Origin: an uncultured bacterium
GTDB taxonomy: Bacteria; Bdellovibrionota; JACOXK01; 2-02-FULL-40-11
Direction: 5' to 3'
DNA: 64,000 nucleotides
NCBI GenBank assembly: GCA_964371555.1
Contig: CAYJMQ010000004.1
Coordinates: forward strand, 1,380-65,379
Positions 3,859 through 52,448 of the stretch are shown here, one piece after another. Below the pieces are notes generated by a model. It ran no database searches, had not been told where the DNA came from, and saw nothing but the letters and a program-made list of their open reading frames with translations. Every line of letters begins with the position of its first letter. The stretch's first letter is position 1. Made by a program: the position numbers and the translations under genes.

Positions 3859-5391
3859 ATGCGCCAACGAATTCTCATTCTCGATTTTGGTTCACAATAT
3901 ACACAACTGATTGCGCGCCGGATTCGTGAATGTAATATCTATTGCGAGATTCATCCCTATTCATTGAAATTAGAAGAGATTGTTTCATTCCGGCCAGCGG
4001 GGGTGGTTCTTTCGGGGGGACCTGCGTCGGTGTTGTCTCCAGATGCTTATTTGATTGATCCAAAAATCTTTGAGTTAAACATTCCGATCTTGGGGATTTG
4101 CTATGGAATGCAGCTTATAGTGAAAGCGCTCGGCGGAAAAGTGGTGAAAGCCGAAGCGCGGGAATATGGTCGTGCGACGATCGAGCTTTGCGCCTCATCT
4201 CAACTTTTCTCCGGCTTTAAAACGGGAGAAAAGCTGCGGGTGTGGATGAGCCACGGCGATCGGATTGAAGATCTGTCAAAAAACTTTATCTCTATCGCAA
4301 CCTCAGAAAATTCGAAGGTTGCCGCCTGTCAGGATGAGGCGAGAAAATTTTACGCGCTTCAATTTCATCCGGAAGTGGTTCATACGCCAGAGGGGAAAAG
4401 GATCCTTTCAAATTTTTTGTTCCTGATTTGTAATTTAAGCCCCTCCTGGACGATGCGATCGTTCATTGACTATTCCATTGAGGCGGTTCGAAAACAGGTG
4501 GGCGATCACCATGTTATTTTGGGGGTAAGCGGGGGGGTCGATTCATCGGTAACCGCCGCTCTTCTGAAACGAGCCATTCCCAATCAGCTCACATTGATTT
4601 TCATCAATAATGGATTTTTAAGGCTCAATGAGGAAAAAAAAGTTGTCGAATTTTTTCATGACTATGATCTTCGTTATGTTGATGCAAGCGAGCGATTTTT
4701 AACAGCGCTCAAAGGGGTTACCGATCCAGAAGAGAAAAGAAAAAAGATCGGTCATATCTTTATTGAAATCTTTGAAGAAGAGGCCAGAAAAATTCCCAAA
4801 GCAAAATTTCTGGGGCAGGGGACACTCTATCCGGATGTGATTGAATCACGATCATTTAAAGGCCCCTCTGCAACGATCAAAACGCATCATAATGTGGGGG
4901 GACTCCCGCCAAAGATGAATCTTGAACTGATTGAGCCTCTCCGTGAGCTCTTTAAAGATGAGGTGCGTCTTCTTGGAAAAGAACTTCAAATGCCGAATGA
5001 GTTGATTTTCAGACAACCATTTCCGGGGCCGGGGCTTGCGGTGCGGATTCTGGGTGAAGTGACGGTGGCCAGGCTTTCGGCTCTTCAGAAAGCGGATCAT
5101 ATTGTTGTTTCAGAGATTAAAGAAGCAGGGCTCTACCATAAAATCTGGCAGTCATTTGCCGTGCTCCTTCCCATAAAAACCGTCGGTGTCATGGGGGATG
5201 AGCGGACATACGAACATGTCATCGCGGTTCGCGCCGTCAAAAGCGAAGATGGCATGACCGCCGACTGGGTCGATCTCCCGCACGAACTTCTCGCCCGTAT
5301 TTCAAACCGCATCATTAATGAGGTCTCCGGCATCAATCGTGTTGTCTACGACATTTCTTCCAAGCCACCCAGCACGATTGAGTGGGAGTAA
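3859..5391 (+). CDS. guaA: GMP synthase (glutamine-hydrolysing)
   Basis: The N-terminal GATase is [24 protein letters not shown]. The PP-loop is [10 protein letters not shown]. The C-terminus is the dimerisation domain. It starts 1 nt after the guaB stop. Confidence 0.9.
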
Positions 5392-8281: not shown

Positions 8282-8314
8282 GCGAAACCATTTTCGAAGA
8301 AAAAATGGTTTCGC
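8282..8314 (+). promoter_or_regulatory. Intercistronic stem-loop with perfect 13-bp arms between rpmI and rplT
   Basis: GCGAAACCATTTT-cgaagaa-AAAATGGTTTCGC. It lies directly after the rpmI stop and 25 nt before the rplT ATG. Confidence 0.5.
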
Positions 8315-37627: not shown

Positions 37628-38902
37628 TCATCGTCCGACCATTGCCAGAATATCTGCTCGAGCAAGATGATAATTCTTTCGTAGTTCCGAATATCTTTTC
37701 TTATATTCGATATATTTTTGCGTTGCGCTAAGAACATCTGGAGAGTTTTTAACACCTCTCTTATATTCGCCCAGTGTTCGATCGAAATAAAGTTTCCCTA
37801 ACTTCAAGTTTTTCTCCCCAATATGAACAAGCTCGTGAATGACTTTTAATTCTGATTTCATTGCCTCAAAACGAGCTTCTAATTCTTTTTGACGTTGAAG
37901 AGAAAGACTCTCAAATGCCATGGCTTGAAGACCTGCGGCAGCGCCTTCTGCTTTAGATTGAAAACCATCAAAAATATCAAGAGTTACTTTAATCCCGCCA
38001 ACAGTTTCATATCGAGCATTCCGTGTGGCTGCTTCTCGTTCTCTCTGCGTATACAAAAAATACCCCGCATAACCATCAATACTGGGAGTCCACCAACGAT
38101 AAAATTGTTTTTTTTGAAATTCAAAAGCTTCTTGATTTGCTTTTAATTGTAAAATTTCTCGATGAGAATTAATTAAATCCGCCTTTAAAGCCAAAAGGCC
38201 CTCATCGTGCTGATGTGGAGCGGCATCAATAGTTTCAAGATTTGTCTCTGGAGACAATCCCAATACAGCGTTTAACTCACGTTGAAAATTAGAAGACATC
38301 AATTCAGCCTGTCTCAAGTCTTGTTCAAGTTGAATTTTATTGATTTCAAACTCAATTCTGTCTGTAAGGGTTGCTAAGCCTGCTTGAATACGTTTTTCAG
38401 AAGCTCCTTTATTTTTTTCATTAAGATCTAGCGCTTCTTTAAAAATGTTTTGTGTCTCTTTTTGGAAAACTAAATTCCAATAAATTCCTCTTGCCTTCGT
38501 TAATTCCTCAAAATATATTTTTTGCTGTTCCTGCTGAGAAGCATTCAACTGTTTTTCTCGGACAGATCCTTCTAATGAATCCCGCCCCCCTTTAAAAAGA
38601 TTTATTTTTGTCTCAATTCCTCCAAAGGGTTGTTGCCTGGTGTCGCCAAATTCCCCGGATTTGAATGATTCCCCTCCAACTGAAACACCTAACGTAGGAA
38701 GATAAGACCGCAAAAGATACCCTGTGCGAGCTTCTCCCGATTGAACTGAAAAAGTGGCTCCCTGAACACTTTTATTTTTTTCTTTTACAAGGCTTGGTAA
38801 ATCTTCAAAGTTAATTTTAAGAGCGGTGGTTCCCGTTCCTCTTGAAGGAACCACCGCAATTGTTAAAATAATAATTTTAATAAATGATTTTTTATTCAAC
38901 AT
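37628..38902 (-). CDS. Outer-membrane efflux factor (TolC/CzcC family)
   Basis: It has a signal peptide. It is 424 aa with a duplicated helical/beta architecture. It is the last gene of the RND operon. Confidence 0.65.
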   Translation of the reverse strand: MLNKKSFIKIIILTIAVVPSRGTGTTALKINFEDLPSLVKEKNKSVQGATFSVQSGEARTGYLLRSYLPTLGVSVGGESFKSGEFGDTRQQPFGGIETKINLFKGGRDSLEGSVREKQLNASQQEQQKIYFEELTKARGIYWNLVFQKETQNIFKEALDLNEKNKGASEKRIQAGLATLTDRIEFEINKIQLEQDLRQAELMSSNFQRELNAVLGLSPETNLETIDAAPHQHDEGLLALKADLINSHREILQLKANQEAFEFQKKQFYRWWTPSIDGYAGYFLYTQREREAATRNARYETVGGIKVTLDIFDGFQSKAEGAAAGLQAMAFESLSLQRQKELEARFEAMKSELKVIHELVHIGEKNLKLGKLYFDRTLGEYKRGVKNSPDVLSATQKYIEYKKRYSELRKNYHLARADILAMVGR

Positions 38903-38906
38903 ATTT

Positions 38907-39323
38907 TTAATTTTGAGGAGGCTCTACCTGAAAAGTAACTGTCTCCTTTTTGCCTTTATAATCTACGATAAGTTCTAAGAGATATCTATGGGTACCTTTG
39001 ATTTGAGGTTTTGCTTCAAAGTGATCGTTGACAATATCTAATTTAATCGTTTGTTTTTTCTTTTTTGGTATCTGCACGGCTGCCACAATAGAAATATCTT
39101 TAAGAGATATAGGAGAGAGTTTATGGGTTAAAGGGTAGAGCTTTATCCCGGATGAATCATTCACAAGCTCGATATAAAGCAGGGTTACCCCTTTCACTGT
39201 TCCTCCATGAGGAGCTTGAATGGCGCCAGGGAGAACATCGTGTCCTTCATGTGCTTGAACAAAATCCCAGGACGTTATTAATCCCAGGATGAAAAAAGTT
39301 AAAATAAGATATCGATATTTCAT
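38907..39323 (-). CDS. Small periplasmic His-containing protein (candidate metal-binding accessory protein)
   Basis: A 138-aa ORF with a signal peptide. The mature protein begins HEGHDVLPGAIQAPHGG. It is wedged between the RND pump and the OMF. It overlaps the pump stop by 4 nt. It resembles neither an MFP nor CusF by eye. Confidence 0.4.
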   Translation of the reverse strand: MKYRYLILTFFILGLITSWDFVQAHEGHDVLPGAIQAPHGGTVKGVTLLYIELVNDSSGIKLYPLTHKLSPISLKDISIVAAVQIPKKKKQTIKLDIVNDHFEAKPQIKGTHRYLLELIVDYKGKKETVTFQVEPPQN

Positions 39324-42300
39324 GTGTCATGACCTCCTTCGATAACAGGTTTTTGATAAGTTGCAGCTCTTTCAGCCGATTTTCTTCCAAAATGGAAGAA
39401 GACTGTTGGGGTTACAATCATATCCAAAAGAGTGGAGCTAAAAAGTCCCCCCACAATAACAACAGCAACCGGGTGCAAAATTTCTTTACCAGCTTGTCCT
39501 TTAGCCAGAACAAAAGGAATAAGCGCTAACATGGCTGTCAATGCTGTCATTAAGACAGGGACAAGTCGTTCAAGAGAACCTCGAATGACCATCTGTCTAG
39601 AAAAATTTTCACCTTCATGTTTCATGAGATGAAGATAATGAGAAATCATCATAATGCCATTTCGGCTGGCAATGCCGCAAAGCGTAATAAAGGCTACCAA
39701 TGTTGCTACGGACAAAATGCGAGAAGAAAGAAAAATAGCAATAAGGCTCCCAATTAAAGCCATGGGAATATTAAGCATAATTTGGATGGCAATAAAGCTG
39801 GATTTGAAATGTCCATACAAAACCAGAAATATACCTAAGAGAGAAAGGATGCCCAAAAAAGTAATGAGTTTTGAAGCTTTTTGCTGACTTTCAAATTGAC
39901 CTCCAAAATTAATAAAATAACCATCAGGTAATTTTATATTTTTGCTGATTTTAGATTTTATATCTTGAATTAAACTATCTAAGTCTCGACCGGATGCGTT
40001 GGCTTGAACCACGATTCTTCTTTGAACGTTTTCTCGATTGATAATATTTGGGCCTGTCGATTCATATACATCAGCTACCTCTTCCAAAGTTACCCGTGTA
40101 CCATCGGGCATAATTTTTATAAGTGTTTTTTTCATAAGTTCAATGTTAGAACGGGAACTGTCATCAAATCTCATAAATACATTAAAAAATCTTTGGTTCT
40201 CCAAAGTATAGGCTACAATTTCACCATGTAATGCCATCTCAAGCATCGATGCAAGACTACCCAGAACAATGCCATATTTGGCTGCTTCTTCTCTTAATAA
40301 CTGAATTTTTACTTGAGGGATGAGCACCTGTTGCTCTATTTGCAGGTCAACCAATCCCCGGGTACCTTCAATGGCCTTGTGAATTTCAGCTGCCTTGTTT
40401 CTTAATGTCGTTAGATCTGTTCCGAAAATCTTAATCGCAATTTGAGCACGAACCCCTGACAGCAAATGATCTAATCTGTGGGATATTGGCTGGCCAATAT
40501 TTACATAAATGCCAGAAATGGTGGTTAATTTTTCTCGAATGTCATTTAAAACAGCTTCTCGAGATCGATGAGATTTGGCCTTAAAATCGACATCGATTTC
40601 AGAATAATGGACACCTTCAGCATGTTCATCCATTTCTGCGCGTCCTGTTCTCCTGGCAACTGATTTCACCTCAGAAACACTTAAAATAAGTTGTTCAGCC
40701 TGGGTACCAATTTTATTACTTTCTTCAAGAGAAATACCCGGATTTGCTAAGACAGTAATGGTAGCTGTGCCTTCGTTGAATTTAGGCAAAAATTCTTTTC
40801 CCATAAATAAAATTAATGTCAATGAGGCAAGAAAGAGTATGCCTAACCCACCCATCACAATTTTGGGATGGTCTAGCCCCCAATTGAGAAATTTTTCATC
40901 CCAATATTTTAAAAAGCGCACAAACCATCCTTCATCTCGCTCCATGAGTTTGCCTTTGGTTAAAAGATAGGAACAAAGAGCAGGGGTTAGGGTTAAAGAT
41001 ACGATGAGAGAAGCTACTAAAGAAACACTATAAGCAATTCCTAATGGAATAAAAAGCCTTCCTTCTATTCCACTTAAATAAAAGAGAGGAAGAAAAACAA
41101 GAACAACAATAATGGTCGCAAAAACAATAGAGTTTCTTACTTCGGAAGAAGCATTATAAATAACTTCTAAAACGGGCAAAGGTTTTCCCAGTTTTTTATT
41201 TTCTCTAAGCCTGCGAAAAATATTTTCTACATCCACAATAGCATCATCTACCAATTCACCGATCGCAACAGCTAATCCGCCTAATGTCATCGTGTTTACC
41301 GTAATGCCAAAAAGTTTCATCACAATGGCAGTTATGACAAAAGAGAGAGGAATGGCTGTGAGGGTAATCATTGTTGTCCGAAAATTAAGTAAGAAAATAA
41401 AAAGTACGATGATGACAAGAATAGCGCCATCCCGCAGTGCTTCTTCGACATTATGAATGGCAGCTTCAATAAAGTGGGATTGCTTAAATAAGTCCTTTTC
41501 TAATTTAACATCGCTTGAAAATCCTTTTGCAATTTCATCGAGCGCTTTATCAATACGCTTTGTGAGCTCTACCGTATTTGCTCCAGGTTGTTTTTGAATA
41601 CTCAATATAACAGCCGGTTTGGCATTGACACTTCCATCTCCTCTTTTAATTTGAGCGCCAATTTTAACTTGAGCGACATCTTGAACAAGTTTTGGAACAC
41701 CAAAATGCAGCCCCACCACTGAATTAAGAATATCTTCTTCTGAACGAACCATTCCAATATTTCTTATTAGAAATTCTTTCTTCTCCTGATCAATAAATCC
41801 ACCGGTTGTATTTTGACTTAAATGGGTCAGCGAGTGTTCAATGTCTTCCAGGGTTAATTGAAAATTTTGAATTTTTTCCGCAGAAAGTAAAATTTGATAT
41901 TGCCGCACACCTCCTCCGATAGCAATCACTTGTGCAACACCGGGAATACTTAGAAGCCTTGGACGAATCACCCAATCTGCCAATGTTCTAAGTTCGAGAG
42001 GAGAAATTTCTCCTTTTTCAGAAATTAAACCAAGAAGCTGTATTTCCCCCATAATGGAAGCAATGGGCCCCATTACCGGGATTGCATTCTTTGGTAATTT
42101 TTCTTTTGCAAGTTGAAGTTTTTCAGATACAAGTTGTCTATTTCTATAAATATCCGTTCCCCAGTCAAACTCGACATAAACAACAGAAAGACCAATCCCG
42201 GAAGAAGAACGCACACGTTGAACACCTGGCAATCCATTTAAAACCGTTTCAAGTTGAAGAGTAACCAAAGTCTCTACTTCTTCAGGAGCCATCCCTGGCG

Positions 42301-42457
42301 CTTCAGTTAAAATAGTTACTGTGGGGCGATTTAAATCAGGGAATACATCTACAGGCAGATGCATCAGTACATAGGTGCCGTAAACCAGCAAAAAAGCTGC
42401 GCTAGAGACAACAAAAAGTCGATTGGTCAAAGAAAAACGAATAATTTTATTAAGCAT
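39320..42457 (-). CDS. Heavy-metal efflux RND transporter (CusA/CzcA family)
   Basis: A 1045-aa ORF with 12 TM helices and two large periplasmic loops. The N-terminus MLNKIIRFSLTNRLFVVSSAAFLLVYGTYVLMHLPVDVFPDLNRPTV aligns with CusA/CzcA. Confidence 0.8.
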   Translation of the reverse strand: MLNKIIRFSLTNRLFVVSSAAFLLVYGTYVLMHLPVDVFPDLNRPTVTILTEAPGMAPEEVETLVTLQLETVLNGLPGVQRVRSSSGIGLSVVYVEFDWGTDIYRNRQLVSEKLQLAKEKLPKNAIPVMGPIASIMGEIQLLGLISEKGEISPLELRTLADWVIRPRLLSIPGVAQVIAIGGGVRQYQILLSAEKIQNFQLTLEDIEHSLTHLSQNTTGGFIDQEKKEFLIRNIGMVRSEEDILNSVVGLHFGVPKLVQDVAQVKIGAQIKRGDGSVNAKPAVILSIQKQPGANTVELTKRIDKALDEIAKGFSSDVKLEKDLFKQSHFIEAAIHNVEEALRDGAILVIIVLFIFLLNFRTTMITLTAIPLSFVITAIVMKLFGITVNTMTLGGLAVAIGELVDDAIVDVENIFRRLRENKKLGKPLPVLEVIYNASSEVRNSIVFATIIVVLVFLPLFYLSGIEGRLFIPLGIAYSVSLVASLIVSLTLTPALCSYLLTKGKLMERDEGWFVRFLKYWDEKFLNWGLDHPKIVMGGLGILFLASLTLILFMGKEFLPKFNEGTATITVLANPGISLEESNKIGTQAEQLILSVSEVKSVARRTGRAEMDEHAEGVHYSEIDVDFKAKSHRSREAVLNDIREKLTTISGIYVNIGQPISHRLDHLLSGVRAQIAIKIFGTDLTTLRNKAAEIHKAIEGTRGLVDLQIEQQVLIPQVKIQLLREEAAKYGIVLGSLASMLEMALHGEIVAYTLENQRFFNVFMRFDDSSRSNIELMKKTLIKIMPDGTRVTLEEVADVYESTGPNIINRENVQRRIVVQANASGRDLDSLIQDIKSKISKNIKLPDGYFINFGGQFESQQKASKLITFLGILSLLGIFLVLYGHFKSSFIAIQIMLNIPMALIGSLIAIFLSSRILSVATLVAFITLCGIASRNGIMMISHYLHLMKHEGENFSRQMVIRGSLERLVPVLMTALTAMLALIPFVLAKGQAGKEILHPVAVVIVGGLFSSTLLDMIVTPTVFFHFGRKSAERAATYQKPVIEGGHDT

Positions 42458-42477
42458 TTTCTTGTATTTTAAATCTC

Positions 42478-42870
42478 TTATTCGAGACGGCTCGAAACCA
42501 ACCGTATAAGCTCGTCAATTTTTTCTTCGATTTTAACCTTATTATTTTCTTTCATGGTCATTCGTACACAACTTCGAATATGTTGTTTTAAAATGGCCAT
42601 TTCAATAAACTTAAGTCCCGCTGCGACGGCTTTAAATTGAATTAGGATATCGACACAATATCTCCGTTCTAAAATCATGTTTTCGATACCGCTCATCTGC
42701 CCTTTGACTTTGCTCAAGCGTGAAAGAAGTGATGTGTAATCAGGATGGTTTTTAGATGGGTCAGTGGGCACAGTTGCATCCTGGCAATGTTTACACTTTT
42801 TATGCGAATCACCTCCTAAAATTACATTTTCCATATATAGAATTCTCCTTTCTCTCTTTCTTATTGACAT
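42478..42870 (-). CDS. CsoR/RcnR/FrmR-family metal-sensing transcriptional repressor with an N-terminal Cys/His-rich extension
   Basis: The core is KVKGQMSGIENMILERRYCVDILIQFKAVAAGLKFIEMAILKQHIRSCV, which is the DUF156 signature with the conserved Cys and His ligands. The extension is HKKCKHCQD. The likely start is MENV at 42834. Confidence 0.75.
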   Translation of the reverse strand: MSIRKRERRILYMENVILGGDSHKKCKHCQDATVPTDPSKNHPDYTSLLSRLSKVKGQMSGIENMILERRYCVDILIQFKAVAAGLKFIEMAILKQHIRSCVRMTMKENNKVKIEEKIDELIRLVSSRLE

Positions 42871-42896
42871 ATACCCTATGGGGGGTATATGTCAAT
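42865..42896. promoter_or_regulatory. Palindromic operator embedded in divergent sigma70-like promoters
   Basis: TTGACATATACCC-TATGGG-GGGTATATGTCAA. The 13-bp arms are perfect. The ATACCC...GGGGTAT core resembles the B. subtilis CsoR operator. TTGACA -35 boxes lie on both strands, each about 16-17 nt from a TATATG -10-like hexamer. Confidence 0.55.
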
Positions 42897-43055
42897 AAAA
42901 CAATAAGAAATGAAGAGAGAGATCATGAAAAAATCAAAGGGGATTATATTTTACGTATTTGCCACACTCCCTCAGAGTTTTATGCTATGGAAACAGGTCA
43001 GGTGTTATGTTATGGCCCTGACGGTGGAATTTGACTTTTTGGAAGGGGGATATTT

Positions 43056-43733
43056 ATGATACGACATATTTTTTTAGGAACCTGGATCATAGGTTCATTG
43101 CTTATACTAGGGTGCCAAGATGAAGATCAATCGTTTAAAGAGTTACAAAAAAAGACTGGAAAATTTGGTATGGAAGGCGAGTTTGAAGCAGAAAATGAAA
43201 GGGCCATTAAAATGGAAGAGGATCTTTCCAGAAGACATCATTTTTATCAGTCCTTAAAAGGAACGTATGAAGGAACTCTTCAAGAAGAAGGCGGAAGTTT
43301 TAATTTAAGAATTACTTTTGCTCCTAGTCTTCCACCATATCCGAAAGATCCTAGTCGCATTAGAACTATTGAGGAAATAACATCAGATCTTACAAATTTG
43401 TATTTTAATGTACAAGTCATTCAATGGAGTCCTCAAAATCCTCTAACTTCTGTAGGATGTCGGGTAGAAGGGGTCAGACCAGATATGATTACAGGAGAAG
43501 TTTTTATCTCTTCAGAAATTTGTCCCAATTTTTATGCTCTTCTTTTATCTGATGCCACCTCTCAAGATAGCATAGGAACATTAAACAATAATCAAGAGAA
43601 AGAACTTGCAACAAGCCTTGCTCAAGCCATTATTGAAGGTCAACTCACAACGGTTTCTCAAATTCAAGGTCAAGTACGTCCTACGACAAATGCTGCTATT
43701 TATGAGTTTATCGCAAAAAGGGTTGAGATGTGA
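43056..43733 (+). CDS. Hypothetical lipoprotein
   Basis: The lipobox is LLILGCQ. It is 225 aa. It is the first gene of the divergent operon. I recognise no family. Confidence 0.45.
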   Translation: MIRHIFLGTWIIGSLLILGCQDEDQSFKELQKKTGKFGMEGEFEAENERAIKMEEDLSRRHHFYQSLKGTYEGTLQEEGGSFNLRITFAPSLPPYPKDPSRIRTIEEITSDLTNLYFNVQVIQWSPQNPLTSVGCRVEGVRPDMITGEVFISSEICPNFYALLLSDATSQDSIGTLNNNQEKELATSLAQAIIEGQLTTVSQIQGQVRPTTNAAIYEFIAKRVEM

Positions 43734-45004
43734 AGAATATCCTTAATGCTTTTTTTATTTTCTTCTTTTCTTTATTTTCTTTGGAATCTTTGGCTTCATC
43801 TGACTCTTTAACTATCTCTCTTGAAGAGATTACTCAAAAAATAAGTACAGAAAATTATCTGGTTTTAGAAAATGCCCAGCGTGTTTATCAGGCAAAAGAA
43901 GCCATCGAAGTTTCGAGAGGAAATCTTCTTCCTCATCTTAACTTTTGGAAAGTAGCTGCAATCACTTTTGAACCGATGGCAGCTATTGGCATGGTTGAAG
44001 ATATAGCTCCCTTTTTGGTACCTGCAAATTGGTTTAGAGTTAAAGAACAAGAGATACTTTATTTGGCTACTCAAGAATCTTATCGAGCTCTCTGGGCCAA
44101 TGAATTGATGACTGGTCGAAATCTCTATTTTAAAATTTTGTTTGATGAAATTCTTTTGGAAAAAATTCAGGAAAATAAAAATCTAATTAATCAAATTTTG
44201 AATATTTCAAAAATGCGAGAGAAATTAGGCGGACAAAGGCAAACTATTTCTCAAGATATTGAGGTAAGAGTTTTAGCCCTCCAGGAAGATATTCGATCTT
44301 TAGAAGTTTTAATCAATGAGGAACTTAATTCTCTTTCTTATTTGATGGGACATGCAAGTGAGGTGGAAATTAAACCACAACCCATTGATCTTCCCGAATT
44401 TGAAAATTTTGAACCGTTGAATTACACAGATTTTGAATTTAGAGTGCTAGATACAGCTCCTGAATTGAGACAGATGGAATATTTAGTGAAGGTAGCTGAC
44501 TTGGTTAAAAAAGAAGAAGAGTTTTCATTTTTAGGGGGATCGAATTTAAGTCGAGGCGTTGCAGGAGGAGTTTTTGATGGACTTCCAATGGGTGTAGGAG
44601 GGCTTGGATTTGGGCTTGCCCCTGCAATTCGTGTGGCTAAGGCGCAAAAAGAAATTTTAAAAATTCAAAAAAGAGGAATCGAAGAGGTTCTTAAAAGGCA
44701 ACTTAAAAATTTAGTCAATAATTATAATTTAGACTTAGAAAATCATGTGAATTTAAAAAGACGCTCAGAGCTTACAAAAAATATTTTAGACAACCTCTTT
44801 AGAAGATTAACCTTGGGAGAAGAAATAGAAGTTTTAGATCTTGTGGAAGCTTCAAGAAATTATATTCAAGCATCCAGTTCCTTTTTTGCCATCAATTATC
44901 GTTTTTTAGCCAATGAAGATAAGCTTTCACGTCTTATTTTTCATGGAGACTATGATAAAAAGCCAGCCGGTTTAGAAGAAGTAGAAAAGAGAAGCAAAGA
45001 ATAA
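43730..45004 (+). CDS. Outer-membrane efflux protein-like (TolC-family) protein
   Basis: It has a signal peptide. It is 424 aa. The N-terminal LTISLEEITQKISTENYLVLENAQRV is the OMF helix signature, and the repeat halves are duplicated. It overlaps the upstream stop by 4 nt. Confidence 0.5.
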   Translation: MKNILNAFFIFFFSLFSLESLASSDSLTISLEEITQKISTENYLVLENAQRVYQAKEAIEVSRGNLLPHLNFWKVAAITFEPMAAIGMVEDIAPFLVPANWFRVKEQEILYLATQESYRALWANELMTGRNLYFKILFDEILLEKIQENKNLINQILNISKMREKLGGQRQTISQDIEVRVLALQEDIRSLEVLINEELNSLSYLMGHASEVEIKPQPIDLPEFENFEPLNYTDFEFRVLDTAPELRQMEYLVKVADLVKKEEEFSFLGGSNLSRGVAGGVFDGLPMGVGGLGFGLAPAIRVAKAQKEILKIQKRGIEEVLKRQLKNLVNNYNLDLENHVNLKRRSELTKNILDNLFRRLTLGEEIEVLDLVEASRNYIQASSSFFAINYRFLANEDKLSRLIFHGDYDKKPAGLEEVEKRSKE

Positions 45005-45472
45005 ATGAAAAAAATTTTAAAACTCAGTTTTTTATTTTTAATTTTTACAGGATGTAACGAAGAGGAGGAAATTCAAAAATGGATTGATAAGGTAGATAAT
45101 CTCCGATCAAAAGTAGAACAAGAATTACCTATTACTCCCTATCAAGATTCTCAACATCAGGCTTTTAAAGAATACTTTTCCGAACTTAATCAAATGATAT
45201 TAAAATTAGGGGATGATGAAGAACTCATAAAGCCATTTAATGGGGTTGTTTCAAAAAGTGATTTGGTCGTTTTATGTCCGAAAATCTTTTTGTCTAAAGA
45301 AAATTGGATGCTTCTCATGGGAAGATGTCAAAAAAATCGTTTCTTTTTATGTGCTGAAGAAGTTCGTTCTTATCCTACCATCGTCTCTCGGCTCAGAGAA
45401 CACTTAGGTACGGAACAACAAAAAAGATTTGACGAAGTATCAGCATGTCGGGAAATATCAGAAGTTCAATAG
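45005..45472 (+). CDS. Hypothetical lipoprotein
   Basis: The lipobox is LIFTGCN. It is 155 aa. It starts 1 nt after the upstream stop. Confidence 0.45.
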   Translation: MKKILKLSFLFLIFTGCNEEEEIQKWIDKVDNLRSKVEQELPITPYQDSQHQAFKEYFSELNQMILKLGDDEELIKPFNGVVSKSDLVVLCPKIFLSKENWMLLMGRCQKNRFFLCAEEVRSYPTIVSRLREHLGTEQQKRFDEVSACREISEVQ

Positions 45473-45494
45473 ATGTGAAATATCACATGTTACA

Positions 45495-45857
45495 TTACAT
45501 TTTAATAGTGGCTCCTTTTACACCTTCCAACGTAGAAGCCTCTACCTCGATTGATCCACCAAATGTCCAACGTTTAAAAAGTATACACCATCGCCCTTGA
45601 AAATCAGTCAGTGTTGTATAATAAGATTCATCATGTTTTACAGTTACCAATAGCGGCTTTTTACCTTCCGGATGAGTAGCTGTTCCACAAGCTTCTAGAG
45701 CACCATTCCCCCTAATGTTCGTGAGAGAGGTTATTTTTAAATCTATCTCTTTTGCAAAAGCCCCTTTTATATTTATAAGGCCTAAAACAATTGCAACACA
45801 AAATCCAATATTTATTACCATTTTCTTCATTTTCATCCTCCATTGGGTAATATGCAA
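45495..45857 (-). CDS. Hypothetical small secreted protein
   Basis: It has a signal peptide (MKKMVINIGFCVAIVLGLINIKGAFA). It is about 110 aa mature and has 2 Cys. I recognise no family. Confidence 0.4.
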   Translation of the reverse strand: MHITQWRMKMKKMVINIGFCVAIVLGLINIKGAFAKEIDLKITSLTNIRGNGALEACGTATHPEGKKPLLVTVKHDESYYTTLTDFQGRWCILFKRWTFGGSIEVEASTLEGVKGATIKM

Positions 45858-51650: not shown

Positions 51651-52448
51651 ATGAAAAAAACATCCCTTTTACTCATAACGTTAATGGTTTTATCGGCCTG
51701 TGGAACCGAATCGCGAAAGTCTGAACCGGCTGCGAACCAGACCCCCCCCACTCAGGGACCTGATGTTCAGGCTGAAAACCGTCCTGTCCCCACCCCTCCT
51801 GAAAAGGGGATGCCCAATCTCCTGATCGATCAGGAGATTGAGAACCTGACCGCCCAATATGCCGGGGCCGAGATTGTTCTTAAGATCAAAACAGTTAAAG
51901 ATAGAATTTCTGTTTATTATGGAGATGAGGTTTTAAAAATTGACCGAGAAAAATCATCCTACTTTGTAAGAATTATCGCGCTAACTCAGGCAGAGCCGAA
52001 ACTCATCATCGACCGATTCTATGAAAATGGCGAGCATCTCTCAAAAGAGATCACACTGAAAAAGACCGCATCGGAGGCAGATGAAGTCGTCTATGAATCG
52101 AACGATGATTTGAATGAAAAAGTAGAGGAGAGAGACGGGTATCTCGTGAAAGTAAGGACGGCCCCAAGCTGCCGTGTCAGTTATAAAGATGGCAAATGGT
52201 CTGTCAGATATCGAGAAATAGAATCAAAGACACTCACCAAAATCGATAAGAATAGAAAGTCATTGGCATTGGCAAACGAACTCTTTGGTAAAGTGCTTGC
52301 ACTTAACGAGGTCAAAGAGGCGCTTCCAGAAGATACAGAGCCGAAAGATATCCATAAGATAAAACTCTACTTCTCGGTTTACGCTAAAGGAATGGCTGAG
52401 AAGCCAGATCAACAGCCAGATCAACAGATAGACAAACAGCCAGAGTAA
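51651..52448 (+). CDS. Hypothetical lipoprotein
   Basis: The lipobox is LMVLSACG. The C-terminus is Pro/Gln-rich (QQPDQQIDKQPE). It is 265 aa. Confidence 0.45.
   Translation: MKKTSLLLITLMVLSACGTESRKSEPAANQTPPTQGPDVQAENRPVPTPPEKGMPNLLIDQEIENLTAQYAGAEIVLKIKTVKDRISVYYGDEVLKIDREKSSYFVRIIALTQAEPKLIIDRFYENGEHLSKEITLKKTASEADEVVYESNDDLNEKVEERDGYLVKVRTAPSCRVSYKDGKWSVRYREIESKTLTKIDKNRKSLALANELFGKVLALNEVKEALPEDTEPKDIHKIKLYFSVYAKGMAEKPDQQPDQQIDKQPE

Follow-up and report, generated by a model that had tools for sequence, protein, structure and literature searches.

What controls two divergent sets of envelope genes in an uncultured member of the Bdellovibrionota is the question raised by a 38-bp palindrome in contig CAYJMQ010000004.1. 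To the left of the palindrome lies a gene for a CsoR/RcnR-family repressor, followed by genes for a heavy-metal efflux system of the resistance-nodulation-division (RND) type. To its right lie oppositely oriented genes for two lipoproteins and a protein resembling an outer membrane factor (OMF). The whole stretch of DNA that was analyzed, 64,000 nucleotides of the contig, is called the window here, and positions are counted from its first letter. The layout of the palindrome and its recurrence at homologous loci suggest, with a probability of about 0.8, that it acts as promoter and operator at once: two overlapping mirror-image promoters would share a single CsoR-type box, and the repressor would control both transcription units.

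The palindrome, its box and its putative promoters

The palindrome is the longest perfect close-spaced inverted repeat of the window. Its perfect arms (42861-42876 and 42883-42898) surround a 6-nt centre at 42877-42882, and a looser inverted repeat at the same place has arms of up to 31 nt with 81% complementarity. In 100 shuffles of the window that preserved dinucleotide composition, repeats with arms of at least 13 nt and a spacer of at most 10 nt occurred at a rate of 0.02 per shuffle, and 16-nt arms were found in none of the 100. An earlier note on this DNA had placed a repeat with 13-nt arms at 42865-42896 and had called it its own reverse complement. The sequence that it quoted, TTGACATATACCC-TATGGG-GGGTATATGTCAA, is present and the 13-nt arms are perfect reverse complements of each other, but the repeat lies at 42864-42895, 1 nt lower than given, and the perfect arms extend to 16 nt. 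The centre TATGGG is asymmetric, so the 32-mer as a whole is not strictly its own reverse complement.

The core of the palindrome resembles published CsoR boxes. At 42868-42891 the sequence reads ATATACCC-TAT-GGGGGGTATAT, with TA-rich inverted repeats and TAC/GTA dyads that flank C and G tracts. The core ATATACCCTATGGGGGGTATAT resembles the Streptomyces CsoR consensus ATATACCCCTNAGGGGTATAT (PMC3902906) as well as the CsoR boxes of Bradyrhizobium liaoningense, TATACCCnnnnnGGGTATA, and C. glutamicum, ATACCCCnnnGGGGTAT (both PMC5057107). Likeness to a CsoR operator had been noticed earlier, and it is borne out both by these published boxes and by the recurrence of the core upstream of homologous repressors. 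The box would be the operator of the adjacent CsoR-family repressor.

Each strand of the palindrome also carries the elements of a putative promoter. A TTGACA hexamer is followed by a TATATG hexamer at a distance of exactly 16 nt on either strand, in agreement with the spacing of about 16-17 nt that had been proposed for each half. These hexamers would form two fully overlapping sigma-70-type promoters that point in opposite directions, with predicted transcription starts near 42898 (+ strand) and 42861 (- strand), about 37 bp apart. Each -10 hexamer shares 2 nt with the opposite -35 hexamer, and this symmetry forces the -10 hexamers to do without a final T. The single box at 42872-42887 would fill both spacers and overlap both -10 hexamers.

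In the proposed mechanism, one repressor site serves both directions. The metal-free repressor, which is the first gene product of the leftward operon, would bind the box. Of the dimer or tetramer suggested in the earlier note, the tetramer agrees with studied CsoRs and the dimer does not; in S. lividans two CsoR tetramers occupy each operator (PMC3902906), and the same arrangement would apply here. The bound repressor would occlude RNA polymerase both ways. On the left this would shut off csoR, a CusA/CzcA-family RND pump, a CrdA-like periplasmic protein and a TolC-like OMF, and on the right a short remnant open reading frame (ORF), a lipoprotein, an OMF-like protein and a second lipoprotein. 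Binding of metal at Cys60, His85 and Cys89 would release the repressor from the DNA, and both units would be de-repressed. The sequence features, the family of the repressor, its MENV start and the recurrence of the box and of the -35 layout in relatives are established, and from these we infer the DNA binding, the transcription starts, the stoichiometry and the effector metal.

The neighboring gene encodes a CsoR/RcnR-family repressor, as had been recognized. The protein matches PF02583 with 78 bits against a cut-off of 22.8 (E = 7e-22, profile positions 3-77 of 78), and its best solved relatives are the CsoRs of Geobacillus (4m1p, 9e-14) and S. lividans (4adz, 3e-10), followed by InrS (5fmn, 1.4e-9) and M. 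tuberculosis CsoR (2hh7, 8e-8). The NCBIfam models of named sensors score far below their cut-offs (RicR NF052430 with 51 bits against 175, and FrmR and RcnR likewise), so the assignment holds at the level of the family only. Residues C60, H85 and C89 align to C36, H61 and C65 of M. tuberculosis CsoR, and their conservation within the clade is 90% or more. The counterparts of Y35 and E81 of the same protein are Y59, within the sequence RRYC, and E104, the latter not conserved in the wider clade. When 1.84 billion representative proteins were searched with HMMER, 2965 matches to the family appeared, none of them more than 50% identical to the repressor, which places it in a sparsely sampled clade; a word-index homology search with the repressor returned two proteins only. 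Members of the clade share an HPD(H/Y) motif ahead of helix 1, and many have an N-terminal extension of the CxxC type. Residues 11-17 of the repressor, in its N-terminal extension, read H-x2-C-K-H-C. This motif is conserved in a homologue with 69% identity, and it may be a second metal site.

Several lines of evidence indicate that the repressor starts at the sequence MENV and that the start in the ORF track is spurious. The MENV ATG is at 42834-42832 (- strand), while the ATG of the ORF track, at 42870-42868 (- strand), falls within the left arm of the palindrome. The NCBI annotation (protein P0001) begins at MENV and has an identical product. Protein conservation between the repressor and its 69%-identical homologue (locus L002) starts at M-[E/K]-N, and a 5-nt insertion or deletion between operator and ATG distinguishes the two loci and alters the open frame through the palindrome. 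The preference for the MENV start in the earlier note is thus backed by the NCBI annotation and by the change of frame in L002.

Homologous loci and alternative readings of the palindrome

The box and its promoter elements recur upstream of csoR homologues in other genomes. A genome scan with a 22-sequence alignment of the repressor gave 80 loci, mostly in metagenome-assembled genomes (MAGs) of Bdellovibrionota, Oligoflexia or Bacteriovoracaceae, with some in Desulfobacterales and others; the analysis of boxes covered 82 loci. When the best inverted repeat in front of each homologue was sought without bias, palindromes of the type ATACCC..GGGTAT emerged in most loci. In 50 of the 82 loci the 200 nt that precede the csoR homologue contain a TAC-C..G-GTA box, which in most of these 50 ranks first among the inverted repeats. 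L002, which comes from another metagenome, has TTATTGACATATACCCCCCGGGGGGCATATGTCAATAA at the equivalent place. Only the centre and one arm base of the 38-bp block differ there, while the intergenic flanks carry insertions and deletions. Two tandem CsoR-type boxes, about 50-70 nt apart, lie upstream of the csoR homologue in L039 (~4830-4930) and in L049 (~4867-4950); the window has one.

The arrangement of TTGACA hexamers around the box supports the two-way promoter model. On the csoR side, 34 of the 50 loci have a TTGACA-like hexamer (at least 5/6 matches) that precedes the box by 1-5 nt, and the hexamer that starts at the TA of GTA is TATA[G/T]T family-wide, 15-18 nt from the -35 hexamer. The offset between TTGACA and the box is variable, suggesting that TTGACA is a promoter element and not part of the sequence recognized by the repressor. 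A mirrored TTGACA is present on the far side of the box in 11 of the 50 loci. A divergent ORF, counted if it has at least 80 codons and starts within 80 nt, accompanies nine of these 11, compared with 13 of the 39 loci that lack the mirror (Fisher p = 0.006). The mirrored loci without a qualifying divergent ORF are L065 and the window itself, where the first divergent ORF is a 44-codon remnant. That mirrored -35 hexamers track divergent genes is the outcome predicted by the two-way model. Together with the recurrence of the TTGACA/box/TATAnn layout, it also favors the earlier proposal that one operator gates the repressor-RND operon and the lipoprotein/OMF-like/lipoprotein operon.

Some observations weigh against a two-way promoter-operator. 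The spacing of TAC and GTA in the window is N10, and the TAC-N9-GTA rule common to the sites of S. lividans, S. aureus, L. monocytogenes and B. subtilis (PMC3902906) is not followed. The boxes of the 50 homologous loci are 15 or 16 nt long, and N10 spacing occurs in 13 of them (L004-L008, L015, L017, L018 and L034 are examples); it is therefore a variant of the clade and not a defect. A generic sigma-70 scan called neither promoter, and the TATATG hexamers are weak and lack the conserved final T. On the right side, the first ORF is merely the 44-codon remnant. L055 and L061, the closest divergent RND arrangements, have the box and no mirrored TTGACA, so the mirrored -35 is not universal. A search for further copies of the operator, which the earlier note had advised as a way to define a regulon, was run on the 64-kb window with N6 and N5 cores and at most two mismatches; it found no second box and only matches at the level of chance, and no regulon can be defined from them.

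Two other readings of the palindrome were considered. In one it is the operator of an unlinked TetR- or XRE-type regulator, and its likeness to CsoR sites is a coincidence. A metagenome scan with the pattern TTGACA-N2-4-TACCC-N6-GGGTA-N2-4-TGTCAA found six loci, and five of these (L083, L084 and L086-L088) adjoin TetR-like or phage-repressor-like genes and lack the C/G tracts, showing that the outer pattern alone is not diagnostic of CsoR. The box with C/G tracts, however, co-occurs with csoR homologues in 50 loci of many lineages, and the only metagenome locus that has the tracts (L085) adjoins a homologue of the OMF-like gene. The 8-kb island around the palindrome encodes no other regulator gene, and an unlinked regulator is very improbable. 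Less probable still is that the palindrome works as an RNA hairpin, whether a terminator, an attenuator or a processing site. As RNA it would form a 17-bp stem with a folding energy of -25 kcal/mol (z = -7 relative to shuffles). However, divergent start codons flank the palindrome on both sides, so that no upstream gene reads into it, neither arm is followed by a run of T, and the predicted promoters place the transcript starts outside the stem. Rfam gave no family near its gathering score, only sub-threshold matches to miRNA-like hairpins, and relatives keep the sequence of the arms itself and show no compensatory changes.

The genes under proposed control and the probable effector metal

The genes on both sides of the palindrome appear to form two divergent metal-resistance operons. 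Their positions are listed in Table 1 together with the elements of the palindrome.

Table 1. Features of the palindrome and of the adjoining genes (positions in the window).
Feature	Position	Strand	Evidence or remark
TolC-like OMF, 424 aa	37628..38902	-	PF02321, 1.6e-29; last gene of the low-GC minus-strand operon
p138, 138-aa secreted protein	38907..39323	-	Invariant AHEGHD..PG..APHGG; family of 30 sequences
CusA/CzcA-family heavy-metal RND pump, 1045 aa	39320..42457	-	TIGR00914, 814 bits against a cut-off of 701
csoR-family repressor gene, 118 aa, MENV start	42478..42834	-	PF02583; identical to NCBI P0001
Ribosome-binding site AAAGGAG	42845..42851	-	Read from the sequence; last base 10 nt before the MENV ATG
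Palindrome	42861..42898		Perfect 16-nt arms TTATTGACATATACCC / GGGTATATGTCAATAA, centre TATGGG; nearly base for base in L002
TTGACA, putative -35 of rightward promoter	42864..42869	+	Read in the sequence; mirrored hexamer associated with divergent genes
TATATG, -10-like, putative csoR-operon promoter	42868..42873	-	Holds the spurious ORF-track ATG (42870-42868)
CsoR-type box TACCCTATGGGGGGTA	42872..42887		TAC-N10-GTA with C/G tracts; putative repressor binding site
TATATG, -10-like, putative rightward promoter	42886..42891	+	16 nt from the -35; overlaps GTA of the box
TTGACA, putative -35 of csoR-operon promoter	42890..42895	-	TTGACA-like hexamer at the equivalent place in 34/50 loci
44-codon ORF (MKKSK...)	42925..43059	+	First of the plus-strand unit; TGA overlaps the next ATG (ATGA)
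lip225, 225-aa lipoprotein	43056..43733	+	Conserved beside csoR in L005, L013 and L029
OMF2, OMF-like (TolC-like) protein, 424 aa	43730..45004	+	PF02321, 1.3e-5, 25.6 bits against a cut-off of 22
lip155, 155-aa lipoprotein	45005..45472	+	Last gene of the plus-strand unit; conserved in L005, L013 and L029

The leftward operon encodes the RND pump, the secreted protein p138 and the OMF in this order, and no gene for a membrane-fusion protein is adjacent. The closest solved structures of the pump are CusA (3e-143) and ZneA (5e-137). Exact look-ups of the pump and of lip225 returned no record. At the positions of the CusA Met triad (M573, M623 and M672) the pump has T, Y and H (residues 568, 618 and 664), and these sit in the motifs DEHAEGVHY and SHRLDH, which are identical in four orthologues. 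Transmembrane helix 4 (residues 398-412, AIGELVDDAIVDVEN) is more acidic than that of CusA. The pump may represent a distinct subgroup of heavy-metal-efflux RND proteins with a different substrate or coordination chemistry. p138 has no match in Pfam or NCBIfam, and a sequence search of the PDB was also empty. The top PDB folds for its AlphaFold2 model (pLDDT 83) are those of H. pylori CrdA in the apo and Ag-bound forms (9ll2/9ll4). The match is weak (E = 2e-3, TM score 0.5-0.64, 13-16% identity) and biologically coherent. p138 is probably a periplasmic metal-binding partner. A trio of RND pump, p13x protein and OMF accompanies csoR on the same strand in L003 and divergently in L055 and L061. 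In the distant relatives L013, L018 and L029, genes for an OMF, a CusB-like fusion protein with an HMBD domain and an RND pump are found downstream of csoR.

The rightward unit begins with what is apparently the deletion remnant of a NosL-like gene. The first divergent gene of L002, L005, L013 and L018 encodes a Cys-rich secreted protein of about 150 aa with a weak match to NosL (22.6 bits against a cut-off of 24). The 44-codon ORF of the window retains only the ribosome-binding site and the first five codons (MKKSK) of such a gene, and its ATGA overlap may preserve translational coupling to the lipoprotein gene that follows. Neither lip225 nor lip155 has a match in Pfam or NCBIfam. The AlphaFold2 model of lip225 (pLDDT 88) consists of a long helix and a beta-barrel, and a fold search with it gave no significant PDB match, the best being lipocalin-like barrels with TM scores of at most 0.4. 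The genes for lip225, OMF2 and lip155 form a conserved module that accompanies csoR-family genes in several MAGs of Bdellovibrionota (L005, L013 and L029), and the homologues of the OMF-like protein that adjoin csoR there are 51-59% identical to it. A homologue of the OMF-like gene also adjoins the C/G-tract box of metagenome locus L085.

The two operons and the palindrome were probably acquired together. The 8.2-kb block from 37628 to 45857 has a GC content of 36.7%, compared with 45.1% for the rest of the window, and the low GC content across the whole block suggests acquisition as one unit. The block is probably a horizontally acquired metal-resistance islet. A bolder idea is that the palindrome is the sole control point of a mobile Bdellovibrionota islet, and that it couples two envelope systems into new metal-handling machinery. 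One of these would be the pump without membrane-fusion protein and Met triad, together with the CrdA-like protein, and the other the trio of lipoprotein, OMF-like protein and lipoprotein. This idea is rather doubtful; if it were true, the mirror-symmetric promoter would force the two units to fire in a mutually exclusive manner.

Among the possible effectors Cu(I) is the most likely, with somewhat better than even odds. It is favored by the C-H-C ligands, by the Tyr and Glu residues of the second shell, by the best solved relatives of the repressor and by neighbors with a copper flavor. Tyr and Glu, Y35 and E81 in M. tuberculosis, are second-shell residues of Cu(I)-sensing CsoRs. The copper-related neighbors are p138 with its CrdA-like fold and the NosL-like divergent genes of the relatives. 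Points against copper come from the pump, which has conserved His/Asp/Glu motifs where CusA has its Met triad, and from the nickel sensor InrS, which has the same C-H-C ligands and binds a repeat of the CsoR type (PMC3320959). A conserved N-terminal His was considered as a mark of an InrS-like nickel sensor and was rejected, since in the copper sensor S. lividans CsoR, too, a His aligns with H30.

Alternatively, with operator and promoters laid out in the same way, the repressor could respond to a divalent metal such as Ni(II)/Co(II) or Zn(II), in the manner of InrS or RcnR, and the pump would export it. InrS, which combines the C-H-C ligands with an N-terminal His and binds the consensus CsoR/CstR inverted repeat (PMC3320959), ranks third among the solved relatives of the repressor. 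A divalent metal would also be consistent with the conserved HPD(H/Y) motif and the Cys/His-rich N-terminal extension of the clade. It would suit the pump as well, where strict conservation of DEHAEGVHY and SHRLDH accompanies the lack of a Met triad and the score with ZneA nearly equals that with CusA. The B. liaoningense CsoR responds to Zn and Cd too (PMC5057107). However, both second-shell residues are present in the repressor: a Tyr, replaced by Pro in InrS, precedes the first Cys, and a Glu aligns with E81 of M. tuberculosis CsoR. The top solved matches are copper CsoRs, and the CrdA-like fold and the NosL-like gene of the relatives also point to copper. Transmembrane helix 4 of the pump, AIG..VDD..EN, lacks the Asp of the DFG motif that marks divalent-cation pumps in signatures of the Nies type. 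A sensor of divalent metal is therefore unlikely, and copper is preferred.

Other inverted repeats occur elsewhere in the window. A perfect repeat with 13-nt arms, GCGAAACCATTTT ... AAAATGGTTTCGC, and a 7-nt loop is found at 8282-8314, about 25 nt upstream of an ORF that starts with MPRVKRG and resembles ribosomal protein L20. It may be a terminator or a leader hairpin. A perfect 26-nt palindrome, CAATCTCCTGATCGATCAGGAGATTG, lies at 51815-51840 within a long plus-strand ORF.

Comparison with known systems

A two-way promoter with a CsoR box is already known experimentally in other bacteria, as in B. liaoningense (PMC5057107), and the present finding leaves the understanding of CsoR repressor action unchanged. 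What is mildly new is the N10 variant, the perfectly palindromic two-promoter design that is kept in several Bdellovibrionota, and the cargo genes. The analysis provides a cis-regulatory annotation for an uncultivated lineage of Bdellovibrionota and corrects the start codon of its repressor. It also shows that N10 CsoR-type boxes and the TTGACA/box/TATAnn promoter design are widespread in Bdellovibrionota. The uncharacterized lipoprotein/OMF-like trio and the RND pump without a fusion protein become tied to metal stress, probably that of copper, and this offers a handle for their study.

The leftward operon resembles crdAB-czcBA of H. pylori, in which a small periplasmic copper-resistance protein is encoded with an RND pump and an OMF. 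The best fold match of p138 is CrdA itself, although the match is weak. In contrast to the window, a membrane-fusion protein is part of the H. pylori system, which is under two-component control rather than that of a CsoR.

Related sensors of nickel share part of the promoter layout. InrS of Synechocystis is a CsoR-like protein with C-H-C ligands, and it controls the metal efflux gene nrsD through a CsoR/CstR-type repeat that overlaps the -10 element (PMC3320959). Unlike the window repressor it senses Ni(II) and lacks the Tyr before the first Cys, and its promoter lies inside an operon and works in one direction. NreA of Mesorhizobium nreAXY belongs to the CsoR/RcnR family and has a dyad operator within the -35/-10 spacer of a promoter that drives the repressor and efflux genes, an experimental precedent for this placement of the operator (PMC12724321). 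Its box, TATCC..GGATA, is of type 1 and nickel-responsive, and its promoter is unidirectional.

The box itself resembles the type 2 operators of S. lividans, B. subtilis, S. aureus and L. monocytogenes (PMC3902906). These have AT-rich TA repeats, TAC/GTA dyads and C/G tracts, and they include an autoregulatory site upstream of csoR; the core ATATACCCTATGGGGGGTATAT can be set beside their consensus ATATACCCCTNAGGGGTATAT. The type 2 operators have N9 spacing, occur in Gram-positive bacteria and control copZA, whereas the window has N10 spacing in a member of the Bdellovibrionota and envelope efflux components as putative targets.

The csoR-cueA region of B. liaoningense (PMC5057107) is arranged much like the window. 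csoR and its target are divergent, their promoters overlap, and one box, TATACCCnnnnnGGGTATA, lies in the overlap. The B. liaoningense CsoR has the C-H-C motif, and its repression in both directions has been shown experimentally there. The target in B. liaoningense is a P-type ATPase, while in the window it would be a csoR-led RND operon together with a lipoprotein/OMF-like unit. The -10 elements of B. liaoningense overlap each other, whereas in the window each -10 hexamer overlaps the opposite -35 within the 38-bp palindrome, and the box of the window is 1 bp longer, with N10 spacing.

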